Virus record (IMG/VR): IMGVR_UViG_3300005670_000019
DNA: 64,000 nt
Source: a virus
Lineage: Duplodnaviria > Caudoviricetes
Reading direction: 5' to 3' (one strand)
The translations under genes and the position numbers were made by a program. The notes below the pieces were generated by a model. It saw only the letters and a list, made by a program, of their open reading frames with translations, was not told where the DNA came from and did not search any database. Positions within the stretch are counted from its first letter, which is position 1. Each line of letters begins with the position of its first letter. Below, piece by piece: positions 1,203-30,217 of the stretch.

Positions 1203-1570
1203 TTACTTTCCTTTGAATTGGAGCCTTATAACACATAAAAATCGGATTTTAAACTATTTGCTTCATTTTCTGTTAGCTCTAAGAGAAAATATCTATTACC
1301 TTTAGAGCCTAGACTTTTGTATTCATCGCTAATGATGCTAATCACGGCATAATGAATTACAGTATGACCTTCAAGTCTGAACACTTTAATAGCCCTGTCG
1401 TTTTCTTTTAAATTTTCAAACGAAATAGGCTTCATTAAACTAAGCATCGATTCACATTCATCGGCTGACAACATCAACTCTTCTAACATTTTTGCAACAC
1501 TATTATCAATTTTTCTCATTTGAAAAATTCTTTTTGCAAAATTCATTTACTTTCCTTTGAATTGGAGCCT
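1199..1570. repeat. 28-bp perfect direct repeat (1199-1226 and 1543-1570) flanking ORF 1226-1546
   Basis: tcatttactttcctttgaattggagcct occurs twice; on the minus strand it is a tRNA 3' end (AGGCTCCA) + RBS + ATG. Confidence 0.9.
1226..1546 (-). CDS. hypothetical protein
   Basis: 106-aa ORF with RBS inside the direct repeat. Confidence 0.6.
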   Translation of the reverse strand: MNFAKRIFQMRKIDNSVAKMLEELMLSADECESMLSLMKPISFENLKENDRAIKVFRLEGHTVIHYAVISIISDEYKSLGSKGNRYFLLELTENEANSLKSDFYVL

Positions 1571-1605
1571 CCCACGGGATTTGAACCCTTGCAAGGACTA
1601 CGTTT
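1563..1605 (-). pseudogene. 3' half of an interrupted tRNA (Thr-like)
   Basis: AAGGGTTCAAATCCCGT-GGGAGGC-T-CCA; acceptor strand pairs with GCCTCTC at 2217-2211. Confidence 0.85.
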
Positions 1606-1616
1606 TCTGAATCTCT

Positions 1617-1691
1617 TGGAGCCCGCGACTGGAATCGAACCAGCTCTCTCCTTATTACAAGTAAGGTGCATGACCATTGTGCTTCGCGGGC
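1617..1691 (-). tRNA. tRNA-Thr(TGT)
   Basis: Cloverleaf; anticodon arm CCTTA-CTTGTAA-TAAGG; CCA encoded. Confidence 0.92.
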
Positions 1692-2155
1692 GCATCTTCA
1701 AAACCTTTGTTTCCTTTGCGAAATCTCTTAGAGGTTTTCTCCCCTCCTTTTCTTCCCCAATTCCGGAAATTGGGCGTTAGAGCATGGCAATTCGGACAAA
1801 GAACTCTCAGATTTTGACGCTGGTTATTTGTGTGGTCGCCATCTATATGATCGATTTCCAATATCGATCCACCACATGCTCTTGTCTTGCAAAAGCCACA
1901 TTGAGAACACTTGAACTCACTTTCTGCCAAGAGACGCTGACGTCTCTTTTCGCGACTAAGTTGTTCGAATGGAACAGTTTCCCACTTTACATCAGTCCAC
2001 TGATTGGACGCGGCGCCCCTTCTCTTGCGCATTGCTTCATAAAATGCGTCAGACTTAGGAGGTGGCTCTTTTCTATCCGGATTGCTTTTGCAGAAAGTTT
2101 GATGATATCCTATACCCCTCTTGGAGAATTCGTTGTTGCAATATTGACATTTCAT
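1655..2155 (-). CDS. HNH endonuclease
   Basis: CSQCG...LEIDHIDGDHTNNQRQNLRVLCPNCH; stop codon inside the tRNA-Thr anticodon loop. Confidence 0.9.
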   Translation of the reverse strand: MKCQYCNNEFSKRGIGYHQTFCKSNPDRKEPPPKSDAFYEAMRKRRGAASNQWTDVKWETVPFEQLSREKRRQRLLAESEFKCSQCGFCKTRACGGSILEIDHIDGDHTNNQRQNLRVLCPNCHALTPNFRNWGRKGGEKTSKRFRKGNKGFEDAPAKHNGHAPYL

Positions 2156-2187
2156 GACACTAACTATGGCAGAGCAAGGATACTTCT

Positions 2188-2217
2188 ACCGTTGCTCTAC
2201 CGTTGAGCTAGAGAGGC
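2188..2217 (-). pseudogene. 5' half of an interrupted tRNA (Thr-like)
   Basis: GCCTCTC-TA-GCTC-AACGGTA-GAGC-A-ACGGT: acceptor strand, D arm and start of anticodon stem. Confidence 0.85.
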
Positions 2218-2234
2218 ATTTTGTGCTATGATCA

Positions 2235-2263
2235 ACAATAGCAAGAAACCGACGAAATTTCAA
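2235..2263 (-). promoter_or_regulatory. sigma70-like promoter
   Basis: TTGAAA-N17-TATTGT immediately upstream of the tRNA 5' half. Confidence 0.6.
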
Positions 2264-3566: not shown

Positions 3567-3642
3567 TGGTCCGACATATGGGAATCGAACCCATCTCTAA
3601 CGGCTTATAAGACCGTCCCCTCAACCAGTTGGGTTATGTCGG
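3567..3642 (-). tRNA. tRNA-Ile(TAT)
   Basis: Cloverleaf; ACGGT-CTTATAA-GCCGT; CCA. Confidence 0.9.
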
Positions 3643-3664
3643 AAATACATGTATACTTATACGT

Positions 3665-4048
3665 ATGTCATTCAAACATTCTCAAGAAAGTTTATTGGAA
3701 TATCTAAAAAAATATTCTAACTCTAGATTGCCTAACACTCATAGAGTAAAATTACATTTACTCCAAACCAAATTTTTAGAAAACAAATGTTCAATTTGCA
3801 ATATGCCACCTTTTTGGTTTGGTAAACCCATTAGTTTCCATCTTGATCACATTGATGGAAACCCAAAAAACAATGAAGTTTCAAACTTCAGAATTCTTTG
3901 TCCAAACTGTCATTCTCAAACAGAAAGTTATTGCGGTAAAAAGAACACTAAAACCCAACACATAAGACAAAAATATTTTTGTCTTGATTGTAAATCAGAA
4001 ATTACATCAAGGGCAAAACGTTGCAAATCCTGTGCTCGACGAGCCTAA
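3665..4048 (+). CDS. HNH endonuclease
   Basis: CSIC...HLDHIDGNPKNNEVSNFRILCPNCHSQT plus C-terminal CxxC..CxxC; divergent from tRNA-Ile. Confidence 0.9.
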   Translation: MSFKHSQESLLEYLKKYSNSRLPNTHRVKLHLLQTKFLENKCSICNMPPFWFGKPISFHLDHIDGNPKNNEVSNFRILCPNCHSQTESYCGKKNTKTQHIRQKYFCLDCKSEITSRAKRCKSCARRA

Positions 4049-5113: not shown

Positions 5114-5566
5114 TTAGAAAGTCTTTGGTTTGTTGGGTGATCGGACAAAAAACTTTTTCAATCTTTCAACGAAAGATTTCCACTTTTCTTGTCGCAACTT
5201 TGACTTCTCTTGTCGAAGTCTTTCTTTTTCTCTTTTTCTCTCAAGCTTCTCGTTGAGAGCCTTCGCTCTTCGGTCAGCTTCACAGTTTCCGCATTCATAA
5301 GCCCAATTAGCATTATGATCTAGAAATGTGTTGAAATACTTTTGCTGGCATTCGTGACAGAGAACTTTTCCACAAACACAACAAACAACGGGTTCTCCAT
5401 GTTCACAAATTGCGTTTCTTTCCCAACCTTTAGGCGGAAAGTCACGGGGTCGATGATATGCATGAAACGCCGCTGCTTTCCTTCGCAACCAATCAAAGTG
5501 ATGATTGTCACGATATTCTAGCTCAGCTTTCAGCCGAGCATTTTCTTTTCGAAGGTCTTCACTCAT
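5114..5566 (-). CDS. hypothetical Cys-rich protein
   Basis: CCVCGKVLCHEC...CGNC; coiled-coil C-terminus. Confidence 0.6.
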   Translation of the reverse strand: MSEDLRKENARLKAELEYRDNHHFDWLRRKAAAFHAYHRPRDFPPKGWERNAICEHGEPVVCCVCGKVLCHECQQKYFNTFLDHNANWAYECGNCEADRRAKALNEKLERKREKERLRQEKSKLRQEKWKSFVERLKKFFVRSPNKPKTF

Positions 5567-5948
5567 TGGAAGTTGCTTGTTTGTTAGGATTAGGAGGCAC
5601 AAGTGTTAGGTTTCCTACATATGTCCAACCATGAAAAAGAACACCTTCTTGATGCCGAAAAACTACTTCAACTCTTGGATTGGTGTCCAACTCTTGTGGA
5701 ATCTTGCTATGATTCGTGTATATCACATGTTCTAATCTAGACCACATTTTCTGGTATGGTCCTTTGTTTTGGAAATACAAAGGACCATCACCAATATACA
5801 TCCCTGTATATTTAGAACGAGTTATGTCCGCCACGAAGTCGTCAAATATCCAGTTTTTTGACGAAAAAAGACGTATTGATGGAAAGCGTAAATAAATTGG
5901 CGTCCCAGCTTCAACGACATGAATTTCTTCTGGATCGTCAAACATCAT
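5559..5948 (-). CDS. hypothetical protein
   Basis: ORF coupled to both neighbours. Confidence 0.55.
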   Translation of the reverse strand: MMFDDPEEIHVVEAGTPIYLRFPSIRLFSSKNWIFDDFVADITRSKYTGMYIGDGPLYFQNKGPYQKMWSRLEHVIYTNHSKIPQELDTNPRVEVVFRHQEGVLFHGWTYVGNLTLVPPNPNKQATSNE

Positions 5949-13397: not shown

Positions 13398-13488
13398 TGG
13401 AGGAAAGCACAGGGATCGAACCTGATCCGGTTATTAGCCGAACGTTCAGTTTAGCAAACTGTCCCAAGTCCAACTTGGTTTACTTTCC
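13398..13488 (-). tRNA. tRNA-Ser(GCT)
   Basis: CAGT-TTGCTAA-ACTG; long variable arm; CCA. Confidence 0.9.
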
Positions 13489-15208: not shown

Positions 15209-15222
15209 AACTCAATGATTTG

Positions 15223-15294
15223 TGGCTCTGGAAGGACTCGAACCTTACGAGGTGTCGCGTATGAAACGAACCTACATATCCAATGTGCAGAGCC
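15223..15294 (-). tRNA. atypical tRNA(CAT), Met or Ile2
   Basis: Acceptor GGCTCTG/CAGAGCC, loop TTCATAC, canonical T arm; aberrant D arm; no CCA. Confidence 0.6.
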
Positions 15295-17979: not shown

Positions 17980-18052
17980 CTACAAACAAAGGGAATCGAA
18001 CCCTCTTCTTCCGGATTGGAGTCCGGATGCACACCATTTGCATAGTTTGCAG
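17980..18052 (-). pseudogene. degenerate tRNA (Gly- or Trp-like), 6-nt anticodon loop
   Basis: CCGGA-CTCCAA-TCCGG; canonical T arm; no CCA. Confidence 0.6.
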
Positions 18053-18626: not shown

Positions 18627-18730
18627 TGGCAGTGGGGATTGGATTTGCACCAATATCCTTATTACGTCGTCAAAAAATCTCGTTCGTATTTGCCTTCAAC
18701 GCATTGCTCTAACTTATGAGCTACCCCACC
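18627..18730 (-). ncRNA. tRNA-like RNA with expanded anticodon arm
   Basis: Intact acceptor, D and T arms and CCA; ~45 nt replace the anticodon arm. Confidence 0.7.
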
Positions 18731-18902: not shown

Positions 18903-19055
18903 ATAGTTGAGGTCTTTACCTCACGCCTAGGAAAATTCTTGAGGTTTTCCTAGAACTATTACAGTTCTTAGTGTCTGTATCACTGGTTGACTTTTATCCA
19001 AGTCAACGCGGAGTGGATTTCATTTTAGGACAAAACCCACAAAGAGTCCCAAGTT

Positions 19056-19080
19056 TGGTACGAGCGACAGGATTCGAACC
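19056..19080 (-). pseudogene. 3' fragment of a tRNA (Gly-like acceptor)
   Basis: GGTTCGAATCCTGT-CGCTCGT-A-CCA just downstream of tRNA-Gly(TCC). Confidence 0.7.
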
Positions 19081-19122
19081 AATTGGTAGCAATCCATCAA
19101 AATCGCTTTTGCTACTATTTAT

Positions 19123-20305: not shown

Positions 20306-20390
20306 TGGTGGGGATGGAAGGATTCGAACCTACTATTCAAAAGAAACGGTTTTACAGACCGCCGCAACACTCCAACGTTGCCGCATCCCC
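20306..20390 (-). tRNA. tRNA-Tyr(GTA)
   Basis: GCGGT-CTGTAAA-ACCGT; variable arm; CCA. Confidence 0.92.
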
Positions 20391-20985: not shown

Positions 20986-21135
20986 ATAGGTTCAGGCTTG
21001 AAATGCATTCTAGAAATGCAAGTTCATTAGATAGTAGTATCACTACACGCTAGCCTGTTAGCGCAACACGGCTCCCACCGCCCGTGATGGGTCGGCTGCC
21101 GTAGATACTTGCAAAAACACCGTGAATAGTTAAGT

Positions 21136-21257
21136 CAACAAATAGAGAGGATTCGAACCTCTTGTTGAGCCGTCGCTCAAAGCACCAGACATTATGACAT
21201 TTCAGTCATAATCACAGGAATCGAACCTGCCATGTACTCGCCAATCGCTATTTGTTG
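21136..21257 (-). ncRNA. multibranch RNA with two T-arm hairpins
   Basis: 10-bp closing stem CAACAAATAG/CTATTTGTTG enclosing CAGGTTCGATTCCTG and GAGGTTCGAATCCTC. Confidence 0.6.
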
Positions 21258-21263
21258 TTCTTT

Positions 21264-21658: not shown

Positions 21659-21733
21659 TGGTGGGTCGCCCCGGAATCGAACCGGGCTCGGTCAGATTAA
21701 AAGTCTGGTGCATCACCTTGATGCTAACAACCC
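21659..21733 (-). tRNA. tRNA-Lys(TTT)
   Basis: CAGA-CTTTTAA-TCTG; CCA. Confidence 0.92.
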
Positions 21734-22065
21734 AATTTTAGCAATCCTTCGTGGATTTCAGCATGACAGTTTGCACACACCAAAATACACTTATCAAGTT
21801 CTTTTTGAACTTTTTCCCAAGACATTCCCCAATTTCCAGAAATTTGGAAATCTTTTTCTTTTGGGATCAAATGGTGAAAGTGAAGAGCTTGTTTAGCACG
21901 ACTGTATCCACAAATTGAACAACAGTTTCCTTTGTATTTGTAGATTTCTTCTTCTCGAAGCCTTCTTCGTCGAGCAACAAGACAAGAATTACAAGTTTTG
22001 TTTCTGTGACCTTTTGCCCTATTTGGTGTGTAGGTTCGACCACAGTCTTCGCAAGAAACTTCCAT
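21724..22065 (-). CDS. HNH endonuclease
   Basis: CSICGY...ALHFHH...ELDKCILVCANCHAEIH; TAG stop inside the 5' end of tRNA-Lys; own promoter at 22073-22101. Confidence 0.9.
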   Translation of the reverse strand: MEVSCEDCGRTYTPNRAKGHRNKTCNSCLVARRRRLREEEIYKYKGNCCSICGYSRAKQALHFHHLIPKEKDFQISGNWGMSWEKVQKELDKCILVCANCHAEIHEGLLKLGC

Positions 22066-22108
22066 GTCAACTACTATGACACGAAACTCGGTGACTTTCA
22101 AGGAAAGT

Positions 22109-22184
22109 TGGTGGACGCGAGAAGAATCGAACTTCCCACACAGTGCTTGCAAGGCATCGTCGCCCCCTTGGTACATGCGCGCCC
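22109..22184 (-). tRNA. tRNA-Ala(TGC), divergent
   Basis: Loop CTTGCAA; G3:U70; CCA; weak anticodon and D stems. Confidence 0.75.
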
Positions 22185-22849: not shown

Positions 22850-22984
22850 CGAAGCAAACTGCGGAATCCGAGTCCACACCTTTCGCCCAAGGCTTATCAC
22901 TACGATACCTGACTTTCCGAAGAAAGCTTCATCTATGATATCCTTGAATAGAGGCGAATGTTCTGCCAGTTGAACTAAGTTCGC
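22850..22984 (-). ncRNA. tRNA-like RNA, CTA in anticodon register, with a ~60-nt hairpin insert
   Basis: GCGAACT/AGTTTGC acceptor, canonical D arm, TTCGC-CT-CTA-[insert]-GCGAA. Confidence 0.65.
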
Positions 22985-23210
22985 TTCAAACTTATTGGAG
23001 TTTTACTCCTTGAAATGAGGACAAACTCTGTTTAGCACTTAAACACACTAATTCTAGCTATCGTTGCATACGTCATCGCACTATTGCAGCTCGCGATGCT
23101 TCTCTGATAAATCACGCGAGTTATGTTTGTCCTCATTTCGAGGAGATAGATGCATTCTGCTACTGCCAGCAAAGGCATTCCACAGAGGATCTATTCTCCA
23201 GAACTTTCTC

Positions 23211-23577: not shown

Positions 23578-23885
23578 GAAATATGAGGAATTTGCTCCCA
23601 ATTACATCACGTATTTAGCGCGGTTCTGCAAAAGGCTAAATTACGCTTGGATTCGAACCAAGACTTTCCCCAAAAAAACTTTTTTTCAACCGGGAGGCTT
23701 CCTTGCCGTCCTCGATGATTTCAATATAACAGACCCCGAGAGGATTTTCAAGGAATGGTCAAAACTTTCTCTAAGTCCTTGATTTCCTTGAGAAATCCCA
23801 AATTTCGAACTGTCCTAATTTGGGGACAAGTGGTATCGTTCATGATACCACTCCAGTAGGACTATATTCCAGTCCTGTTGTAATT

Positions 23886-28555: not shown

Positions 28556-30217
28556 TCAGTCATCTAACCATCCCCATGGATTTTGCCAATGAGGTGTTCG
28601 GGTAGAATTCATAACTCTACTATCTGTTGAAGACCCACCAAAATGCCCAGCATTTGAAGGATTTGTTGAATGCGCAGCTCCCCATCCTGATGTTGACTTT
28701 TGGGTTTCAAAAGTTTTGACTGTTGTTTGGTTTACGGACATGGCAGCAATCATAGCTCTAGCAAGTTCTGCGCTGCTATCAAAGTTTTGGTCACCTTGTG
28801 GGTCGAAAAACAAGAGAGTAATTGCAAGGGACATGACAAGGTCGTCGTTGTAACCTTTCATAGCTTGCGCCTTATTGTTATGCCAAATGAATGTTTTCAA
28901 CTCTTCAACAAAGCGTCCGGAATATATCTTTAGCGTTTTCGTTCTGAGTGCTTGTTCAAGTTTTACAAGTCCTTCATTTCTGGATTTTACACTCATCATC
29001 AAACCTGGGGTGTATGGTTCGACATCAATATCACTAAGCCATTTGGTTCCCATCAAAACTTCTTTTGAGAACTTCTCATAAAATACTTTTGGGTACTTCA
29101 ATCTTTTCAGTTCAAGATTTGTTGCGATTCCACCACCTTGTTGTTCAGCAATGATGACAGCGTTATTGTATTTTCCACCAATGTCAGCAAGAAGTCTTCC
29201 GAAATCATCAGCAGGAAGTTGTCCCTTGAATTCACAAACAACTTCACTTTCATCCATATCAATAACATAAAAAGAAGAGAAGTCCTCACCATCACCACGA
29301 GCGACGTCTGCTCCAATGATGTATTTGTGATTTGGAACTTGATATCTCCAGATCCACACGTTTTGATTTGGACCATATGTTGCGAGTGGTGGTCGAATAC
29401 TTTTCTCTAACCAAGAAACTTGTTCTTCATCAACAAATCCATTTCCAGAACCCTCAAACTTACAAAGAAGCTCTGAGTTGATACCTCTTTGAGAACCGAT
29501 AGCTCTTGATTGTTCTTCGAACCATTTCTCATTATGTTCTGGATGAACAAACCAAGGAAGTTCAATGGGATAGAAATCATTCGTCTTGTCTTGAGCTCCG
29601 ACCCAAATCTTATGGAAACGCGTTCCTACACCAGAAGGTGATGAAATCAAAATAACATCTCCTCCGGTAGATAACGTTGGTTGAAGACCGATCCAAAGGT
29701 CTTCAAAATCTGCAATCCAGCCCGCCTCATCAATAATCAAAAGAGATACGGCTTCGCCTCGACCTGCATCAGGAGAAGTTGGAATAGCGTGAATCTTTGA
29801 ACCATTGTCGAACTCAAGTGATTTGTTTGTTTCACTCGTGATGTTTGGAACAACCAACCATGATGGAAGAGACTTGAACATTCCCTTTACTTTTCTAACG
29901 AAAAGCTGTGCTGTTGAAAGTTTGGTAGCGATAACAAGAACGTTCTTTTCTCGTTGAAAAATAGCCATCCAAAGTGAGTAAGCAGCAGCAAGAGTAGAAA
30001 GTCCAAGCTGACGACTTTTGTTTGTGATAACGTGATTGTTGTTCAAGAAAGCTTGCAAACAATCGATCTGATATGGAAACAATTCAAAAGGAATTGAGCC
30101 TTTTGTTGGGTGAGAAATTTTTACGTATTTCTCAATGAAATATACAGGATCAGAACCACATCGAATGATTTCATTCAAATGTTCTTTTCTTGTTTGATTG
30201 ATTTTCGGTCGCTTCAC
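28556..30217 (-). CDS. terminase large subunit
   Basis: KSRQLGLS Walker A, IIDEA Walker B, GADVARG RNase H-like motif, NDDLVMS. Confidence 0.95.
   Translation of the reverse strand: MKRPKINQTRKEHLNEIIRCGSDPVYFIEKYVKISHPTKGSIPFELFPYQIDCLQAFLNNNHVITNKSRQLGLSTLAAAYSLWMAIFQREKNVLVIATKLSTAQLFVRKVKGMFKSLPSWLVVPNITSETNKSLEFDNGSKIHAIPTSPDAGRGEAVSLLIIDEAGWIADFEDLWIGLQPTLSTGGDVILISSPSGVGTRFHKIWVGAQDKTNDFYPIELPWFVHPEHNEKWFEEQSRAIGSQRGINSELLCKFEGSGNGFVDEEQVSWLEKSIRPPLATYGPNQNVWIWRYQVPNHKYIIGADVARGDGEDFSSFYVIDMDESEVVCEFKGQLPADDFGRLLADIGGKYNNAVIIAEQQGGGIATNLELKRLKYPKVFYEKFSKEVLMGTKWLSDIDVEPYTPGLMMSVKSRNEGLVKLEQALRTKTLKIYSGRFVEELKTFIWHNNKAQAMKGYNDDLVMSLAITLLFFDPQGDQNFDSSAELARAMIAAMSVNQTTVKTFETQKSTSGWGAAHSTNPSNAGHFGGSSTDSRVMNSTRTPHWQNPWGWLDD

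Follow-up and report, generated by a model that had tools for sequence, protein, structure and literature searches.

A tRNA-Thr gene split by an HNH nuclease gene and a spare tRNA gene in the tRNA array of a large tailed phage

In a 64,000-nucleotide (nt) stretch of viral DNA (IMG/VR record IMGVR_UViG_3300005670_000019; hereafter the window), which is part of a large tailed phage genome, we found that a threonine-type transfer RNA (tRNA) gene is broken by a segment carrying an HNH endonuclease gene together with a second, complete tRNA-Thr gene. Since near-identical phages keep the same gene unbroken, its two outer halves are dead leftovers, relics and not parts of a functional RNA. We consider it highly probable that the segment is a free-standing HNH homing-endonuclease cassette, which enters a tRNA gene and makes up for the loss by supplying a replacement tRNA of its own.

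The split tRNA-Thr gene and its intact counterparts

The split unit occupies positions 1563-2263 of the minus strand and is the final unit of a 25-kilobase (kb) array of more than 33 tRNA genes, which runs along that strand from 26.5 kb to 1.6 kb. We called tRNA genes with ARAGORN, with and without introns allowed, and with the Rfam tRNA model (gathering score 29), and assigned nucleases to families by PHROG and Pfam profile matches. An initial annotation, made from the letters alone, had described a promoter, the 5' half of a tRNA gene, an HNH open reading frame (ORF), a tRNA-Thr(TGT) gene and a 3' half on the minus strand, and all of them were recovered in place. They are listed here with reference to contigs that carry the same site without the insert (L165, L166 and L167; empty alleles) and to related contigs described below.

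2263-2235, minus strand: promoter-like site of the resident tRNA gene, TTGAAA-17-TATTGT, 100% identical in the empty allele L165
2217-2194, minus strand: outer 5' fragment, positions 1-24 of the resident tRNA-Thr(CGU), with acceptor strand GCCTCTC and a regular D arm (by identity to L165)
2193-1589, minus strand: insert of 605 nt, absent from L165, L166 and L167 and 92% identical to the insert of L035
2193-2188, minus strand: AACGGT, the initial 6 nt of the insert, sequence of donor-type tRNA-Thr(UGU) exon (by comparison with L169, L035 and L165)
2201-2168, minus strand: strong hairpin TTGCTCTGCC, formed by the 3' part of the resident D arm and the cassette leader (-23.8 kcal/mol, z = -4.4)
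2155-1655, minus strand: HNH endonuclease ORF of 166 amino acids (aa) (PHROG, Pfam)
1691-1617, minus strand: inner, complete tRNA-Thr(UGU) with encoded CCA (ARAGORN; 55.8 bits with the Rfam tRNA model)
1616-1589, minus strand: 3' spacer of the insert, 28 nt, containing the second TCCTTGC and ending in AA of the donor type
1588-1563, minus strand: outer 3' fragment of 26 nt, positions 50-75 of the resident tRNA-Thr(CGU) (by identity to L165)

The outer acceptor strands are complementary, as had been reported, with 7 of 7 pairs formed, one of them G:U and the third C:G. The outer 3' fragment comprises 3 nt of T stem, the T loop, T stem, the acceptor strand GGGAGGC, U73 and CCA, and the leader ahead of the HNH ORF is 38 nt long. 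Two details of the initial annotation needed correction. It had let the 5' half run on from the D arm to ACGGT, which holds up to position 24 (GAGC), but AACGGT came with the insert. It also had the order of HNH ORF and complete tRNA right, but the two are not separate: they overlap by 37 nt, with the last 12 codons of the ORF inside the tRNA gene and its stop codon, TAA, in the anticodon loop.

The inner tRNA-Thr(UGU) forms a complete cloverleaf above the Rfam threshold and is predicted to be functional. It is 65% identical to the resident tRNA, 97% identical to the inner tRNA of L035 and 87% identical to the tRNA adjoining a 64%-identical HNH gene in L041. The outer gene lacks its anticodon arm relative to L165, and ARAGORN did not call it as a tRNA, whether or not introns were allowed.

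The relatives that reveal the history of this site came from metagenomic contigs. A megablast of the window against GenBank phages gave no match, and neither did exact-pattern scans of IMG/VR with each outer tRNA half. The large terminase (28556-30217, minus strand) shares at most 42-51% identity with those of known or IMG/VR phages, and its relatives (L001-L032, at most 51% identity) have no tRNA arrays nearby and hence were of no use for finding empty alleles. Exact protein look-ups placed window proteins on contigs of about 297-300 kb, and the empty alleles were reached through the downstream gene at 484-909, of which Logan contigs from three runs carry a 98%-identical copy.

L165 (a 297-kb contig), L166 and L167, from three sequencing runs, have flanks 94-96% identical to the window and an intact 75-nt tRNA-Thr(cgt) gene at the site (3111-3185 in L165). 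Window positions 2278-2194, covering the promoter-like site and tRNA positions 1-24, match L165 3050-3134 at 100%, and window positions 1588-1543, covering tRNA positions 50-75 and the sequence downstream, match L165 3160-3205 at 100%. Because both outer halves match the ends of one intact L165-type gene perfectly, they stem from a single tRNA gene, and the possibility raised at the outset, that they derive from different tRNA genes in relatives, does not apply. Set against this empty allele, the window has exchanged 25 nt of the resident gene (positions 25-49) for 605 nt, losing base 25, the anticodon arm, the variable loop and the first two T-stem bases. The three empty alleles thus show directly what the initial annotation had proposed, namely that a Thr-type tRNA gene was split by insertion at the anticodon arm. 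The intact T stem in L165 is ACGGG/CCCGT, and the window reads AAGGG there because the insert ends in AA.

A further filled allele occurs in L035, which has an HNH gene 95% identical to that of the window and an identical nested layout. By BLASTN, L035 367-1018 and window 2217-1563 are 91.8% identical, and the ends of this alignment coincide exactly with the outermost bases of the split tRNA. The gene adjoining the split unit is 68.6% identical between the two at the nt level and 66% at the aa level. Within the unit, the ORF and inner tRNA are 93-97% identical, and the 3' spacer is lowest at 61%. At the orthologous site, the L035 relative L169 keeps tRNA-Thr(tgt) intact, with a T stem that begins AAGGG, and L035 397-992 replaces 19 nt of this L169-type gene. 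The promoter-like hexamers are retained in position in both L035 and L169.

A homing element is expected to be present or absent among near-identical genomes, which is what we find between the window and L165-L167, between L035 and L169, and for a second cassette in the window (see below). It is also expected to be better conserved than its flanks between diverged genomes, as is the case here (91.8% versus 68.6%). Together, these patterns are a signature of mobility and suggest that the cassette has spread horizontally.

The ends of the insert may also record where it came from. GAGC is followed by AACGGT in both L169 (intact) and L035 (filled), and L165 differs there. The AACGGT that starts the insert and the AA that ends it correspond to the L169-type exon and do not occur in the window's own empty allele. 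This lends modest support, the tract being short, to co-conversion of donor exon. On a co-conversion reading, a Thr(UGU) gene would have housed the donor cassette and the orthologous Thr(CGU) gene would have received the copy. The crossovers would then fall within the 24-nt 5' block common to both genes and within the T-arm block with GGGTTC. The 5' block by itself is insufficient to identify the tRNA, since a metagenome scan with the 5' half showed that intact Thr(UGU), Lys(CUU) and Lys(UUU) tRNAs have the same 25-30 nt there. A Lys identity for the outer gene was considered and dropped, as the empty allele shows tRNA-Thr(cgt).

Two features lie at the borders of the insert. TCCTTGC, which had been noticed near both junctions, is found at 2180-2174 and 1597-1591, and TCCTT occurs in L035. 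We rejected a target-site duplication as its origin because both copies are inside the insert and missing from the empty allele. In the leader hairpin, the cassette carries an inverted copy of the D-arm sequence of its target (leader TTGCTCTRCC), and comparable D-arm/leader pairing is seen in L040 (about 1805-1840) and in L035. The hairpin may act in attenuation or in RNA stability, or it may be a scar of the insertion.

The nuclease family and further units in the window

The first HNH ORF matches the HNH endonuclease family phrog_10822 (E = 1e-18) and, weakly, Pfam HNH_3/HNH. The motif CxxC...H...N...CxxCH is intact, and H103, N115, H124 and the two CxxC pairs are invariant among 31 homologs; judged by this motif, the product is an HNH endonuclease. 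The conserved protein stops near RKGNKGF, and its C-terminal tail is read-through into the tRNA. This HNH has more than 340 homologs. At the 100 loci that we examined, the HNH genes sit within phage tRNA arrays on the same strand as the tRNAs, and at most of them the next tRNA gene contains the HNH stop codon or is only a few bases away from it; the stop is often the TAG at tRNA positions 8-10. An HNH homolog in a cultured Karamvirus is placed in this way too.

Close homologs always have tRNA-Thr(tgt) directly downstream and often a Thr-like 5' fragment upstream (L037, L040, L043 and L044). This fragment pairs perfectly with the 3' acceptor strand of the complete downstream tRNA in L040 and with the end of a chimeric partial tRNA past the inner tRNA in L037 and L044, and in L043 a tRNA 5' fragment is fused to the HNH ATG. 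Matched outer halves are more frequent at HNH loci than chance would provide, since a strict screen of the 100 loci gave 4 matched pairs where 0.12 were expected and a loose screen of HNH-family loci gave 13 where 2.9 were expected.

More distant HNH relatives (L062, L066, L106, L107 and L109) lie inside tRNA-Leu(UAA) genes that are split in the anticodon loop, with halves 700-850 nt apart, and L109 has a sub-threshold Rfam group I intron match at 1147-1303 (37 bits). The likely explanation is that these relatives are homing endonucleases carried by introns in tRNA genes of phages. Given the tRNA-Leu(UAA) splits and the L109 match, the family appears to take the intron route as well.

Some loci of the family have unusual RNA genes beside them. 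The tRNA-Thr(tgt) genes near HNH homologs in L037 (3472-3555), L044 (2224-2310) and L105 (1889-1976) are 84-88 nt long. Their bodies are those of class II tRNAs, in which the variable arm is long and the D arm resembles that of Ser/Leu tRNAs, and they carry U73 and the anticodon of Thr. In viral tRNA arrays, an HNH gene adjoins a ROOL RNA in L066 (1854-2445, 263 bits) and a transfer-messenger RNA (tmRNA) in L043 (910-1268, 88 bits).

We searched the window for further units by screening for T arms that ARAGORN had left unassigned, and we found a second complete case 12 kb from the first:

14680-14659, minus strand: outer 5' fragment, 22 nt, of a resident tRNA-Leu(AAG), equal to the start of the intact gene in L180 and L181
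14660-14172, minus strand: paralogous HNH ORF of 162 aa (phrog_10822, E = 4e-46)
14206-14120, minus strand: inner complete tRNA-Leu(GAG) (ARAGORN)
14115-14071, minus strand: outer 3' fragment, 45 nt, with variable arm, T arm, acceptor strand, A73 and CCA, matching L180 from 2447 on

This second HNH is 32% identical to the first and belongs to the same PHROG family. Its ATG takes the last 2 nt of the tRNA fragment, and its stop codon, TGA, lies in the inner anticodon loop. The inner tRNA-Leu(GAG), 68% identical to the resident tRNA-Leu(AAG), is separated from the 3' fragment by a 4-nt spacer. L180 and L181, with flanks 93% identical, carry an intact 88-nt tRNA-Leu(aag) gene at 2405-2492, of which the window lacks 21-23 nt, namely the 3' strand of the D stem and the anticodon arm. 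ATGCC is present at both junctions, and the filled form of the site occurs on many contigs (L170-L179).

A third case is incomplete, having no matching 3' fragment:

18618-18584, minus strand: 5' fragment of a Gln-type tRNA, through the anticodon loop
18552-18124, minus strand: HNH ORF of a different PHROG family
18133-18058, minus strand: complete tRNA-Gln(ttg)

Another paralog of the first HNH is encoded on the opposite strand at 3629-4048 (plus strand) and abuts tRNA-Ile(tat). The near-identical L165 lacks window positions 3991-3646, which points to another recent insertion.

Beyond the HNH units, the window differs from its relatives by several ORF-sized segments. The ORFs flanking the split unit, 2274-2648 and 1226-1546, are window-specific insertions relative to L165 and have no relatives in IMG/VR. 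The latter encodes 106 aa of no assigned family and is flanked by a 28-nt direct repeat (about 1570-1543 and 1226-1199), which starts with the last 7 nt of the tRNA (GGCTCCA) and reaches the ATG of the next gene. The segments 2279-2672 and 5138-5569 are missing from both L165 and L166, and BLAST alignments overlap by 19 nt at the bounds of 5138-5569.

The array also contains orphan T-arm/acceptor/CCA-like remnants on the minus strand (19040-19110, 21130-21260 and 23630-23680), two directly downstream of tRNA-Gly(tcc) and tRNA-Leu(caa) and one at 23658, as well as a 116-nt element (21254-21139) with two T-arm hairpins and complementary ends. These orphan T-arm remnants are probably further recombination scars. 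Odd tRNA-like genes, all on the minus strand, lie at 17980-18051, 20309-20390, 22113-22184, 15220-15294, 13400-13488, 18627-18730 and 22851-22985. In one of them the anticodon loop has 6 nt (ARAGORN anticodon 'cc'), another is a Tyr(GTA)-like tRNA that Rfam alone recognised, and two are candidates with 24-nt and 60-nt insertions. The compact elements among them lack a normal D arm, although their T arms are good and their acceptor ends pair; one overlaps the annotated start of the HNH gene at 21724-22176.

A proposed homing model and its alternatives

We propose that, during co-infection, the HNH enzyme would cut tRNA genes that belong to the same amino-acid family and lack the cassette, at a site in or close to the anticodon arm, and that the break would be resected and then repaired from the cassette-bearing genome. 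The retained tRNA ends would serve as homology arms, with the 24-nt acceptor/D-arm block on the left and the block from the GGGTTC T-arm sequence to CCA on the right; if they act in this way, a few donor-exon bases (AACGGT and AA) would be transferred along with the cassette. The carrier genome would be immune because its target site is deleted, and the cargo tRNA, being only 65% identical to the resident one, may differ at the cleavage site. Both the nuclease activity and the direction of transfer, from filled to empty, are inferred.

Decoding capacity would be kept, as UGU is expected to read ACG and ACA, and GAG to read CUU and CUC. In the long ORFs, ACA is used 263 times and ACG 57 times, while CUU is used 292 times and CUC 55 times. 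A second Thr(cgt) gene persists in the window at 19894-19820. The position of the HNH stop codon inside the inner tRNA would have a further consequence: maturation of that tRNA by RNase P would leave the HNH message without a stop, which may keep nuclease expression low.

Several observations weigh against this model. Taken alone, the pattern of presence and absence is also what would result if recombination had put an intact allele in the place of a filled one. The original insertion was not clean, and because it removed 19-25 nt, the founding event cannot have been simple homologous homing. The left homology arm is just 24 nt long. Since the targets differ in their anticodons (CGU and UGU), the enzyme would have to recognise sequence outside the anticodon or be relaxed in its recognition. 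Finally, the model leaves both the TCCTTGC repeat in the two insert ends and the strong leader hairpin unexplained.

The alternative that survives best, improbable as we judge it, is that the cassette is a passive passenger, nested by illegitimate or tRNA-microhomology recombination as part of ordinary mosaic exchange, with the HNH protein employed elsewhere, for example in packaging or defence. The founding deletions and the ATGCC microhomology at the second site fit such an origin, as do the further ORF-sized differences between the window and L165 that involve no nuclease (2672-2279, 1542-1227 and 5569-5138). Against it, the architecture is met repeatedly: this one genome has it with two paralogous HNH genes, unrelated contigs have it with homologs, and the tRNA is in every case one of the same family. 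The HNH ORFs are intact, the cassette is much better conserved than its flanks across lineages, and cutting of tRNA genes by a phage nuclease has a precedent in SegB (PMC2330249).

Somewhat less probable still is that the outer halves function as RNA, pairing over about 600 nt so that an acceptor/T-arm minihelix caps the HNH transcript. Such a minihelix might be a processing signal for RNase P or CCA addition, or a stabilising or chargeable end. In its favour, the 7-base-pair acceptor pairing is retained at both window sites and in L035, L037 and L044, the T arm is perfect at the second site, the resident promoter-like site would still drive the split unit, and the minimum free energy fold of the 655-nt RNA brings both ends into pairing. 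On the other hand, the acceptor stem simply derives from a recently split gene, which is intact in relatives at 95% identity, and the whole-RNA fold is little better than those of shuffled sequences (z = -1.7). The insertion weakened the T stem at the first site from ACGGG to AAGGG and just 3 pairs are left in L035, while the spacer ahead of the T stem is the least conserved segment of the unit (61% versus 92-97%).

The initial annotation had offered a version of this idea, a tmRNA-like, tRNA-capped transcript, which these same observations on T stem and spacer do not support. A tmRNA identity fails in addition because the third acceptor pair is C:G and not G3:U70, there is no tag frame or pseudoknots, and ARAGORN found 0 tmRNA genes; the sole match to the Rfam tmRNA model was a 13-nt T-loop match (9.4 bits, E = 0.29).

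That the insert is an intron, group I or other, spliced to restore the outer tRNA, can be practically discounted: the break does lie at the anticodon arm, the usual place of tRNA introns, and distant HNH relatives do occupy split tRNA-Leu(UAA) genes, with the sub-threshold group I match in L109, but the exons do not join into an intact gene here, as 25 nt at the first site and 21-23 nt at the second, including the anticodon, are missing. Joining the halves gives only about 50 nt without an anticodon arm (positions 25-49 missing), and ARAGORN called no outer tRNA with introns allowed. Among 2805 forced joins of the halves, ARAGORN recognised nothing better than a poor fold that resembles Leu(cag) and has mismatched stems, which the 25 missing nt explain. 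Besides the ORF and the inner tRNA, the insert has just 38 and 28 nt (66 nt), too little for a ribozyme, and the Rfam Intron_gpI model gave no match in 1300-2600 (E<=10) or in 1-28000 (E<=1). With no Rfam match and no joinable tRNA, a group I, group II or other intron is refuted as far as sequence can tell.

If the homing model is right, it has implications beyond this site. Homing endonucleases are thought to persist in self-splicing introns and inteins or between genes. The cassette would represent a third route, in which an element sits inside an essential-type RNA gene and the damage is offset by a spare copy, with alleles from before and after the event available. It would account for the many orphan tRNA halves and pseudo-tRNAs in phage tRNA arrays, which mislead annotation, and would provide a concrete mechanism for the turnover of phage tRNA repertoires, anticodons included. 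Such cassettes would also be a source of natural nucleases that probably recognise tRNA-gene sequences, and the filled/empty pairs make the cleavage site and the drive directly testable. More speculatively, and with appreciably more doubt than confidence, we suggest that HNH-plus-tRNA cassettes may be a general cut-and-replace gene drive on RNA genes, which uses a divergent spare copy in place of splicing and rewrites the anticodon set as it goes (CGU to UGU, AAG to GAG); the unusual tRNAs may evade host tRNA-cutting defences, and the nuclease would be throttled because maturation of the cargo tRNA removes its stop codon.

Comparison with known systems

In our literature search, the coverage of which was incomplete and which is no proof of novelty, we came across no account of a split tRNA gene that houses a cassette of nuclease and spare tRNA. 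Surveys do record HNH genes in tRNA clusters (PMC6409571). The closest parallel is SegB of T4/T6, which cuts the tRNA genes of phages lacking it at a conserved T-loop motif and drives the inheritance of itself and neighbouring tRNA genes (PMC2330249). SegB-dependent amplification through microhomology between a tRNA gene and segB was reported in 2026 (PMC13096335), and the processing of tRNA precursors has been proposed to limit nuclease expression for both SegB and the T5 enzymes (PMC2330249). SegB thus resembles the cassette in being a free-standing nuclease gene within a phage tRNA array, in its documented tRNA-related microhomology recombination and in the idea that tRNA-precursor processing limits the nuclease. 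However, SegB is a GIY-YIG and not an HNH enzyme, and its gene is located between tRNA genes and has not been reported inside a split tRNA gene or fused to a replacement tRNA. In the window, by comparison, the target gene is destroyed and compensated by the cargo tRNA.

The F-Tfl enzymes of T5 are likewise HNH-type site-specific endonucleases encoded in a phage tRNA cluster, and in the text that cites them (PMC2330249) there is no mention of a spare copy accompanying a nested or split tRNA.

Group I introns with homing endonuclease ORFs, including those in the anticodon loops of bacterial tRNA genes, share with the cassette the anticodon-region site and the nuclease (PMC3984707). They also share the use of flanking exon as homology for homing and the co-conversion of donor exon. 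Unlike these introns, the cassette has no ribozyme or splicing and deletes part of the exon; it would avoid harm to its host by a second gene copy, where the introns do so by RNA splicing.

Integrative elements insert into tRNA genes by means of an integrase and attachment (att) sites and restore them with a duplicated 3' segment. The tRNA target, the function kept by element-borne sequence and the partial tRNA copy at the border are common to both. Such elements regenerate the same tRNA, whereas the tRNA delivered by the cassette is complete and divergent (65% identity), and the two ends of the old gene stay behind as dead fragments.

Lastly, mobE in the nrd genes of phage Aeh1 is, as those reports outline it, a free-standing homing endonuclease gene inside an essential gene (PMC2790892, PMC2988022). 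By the same accounts, the nrd halves are functional as subunits, whereas the tRNA halves in the window are non-functional and a spare gene compensates for their loss.

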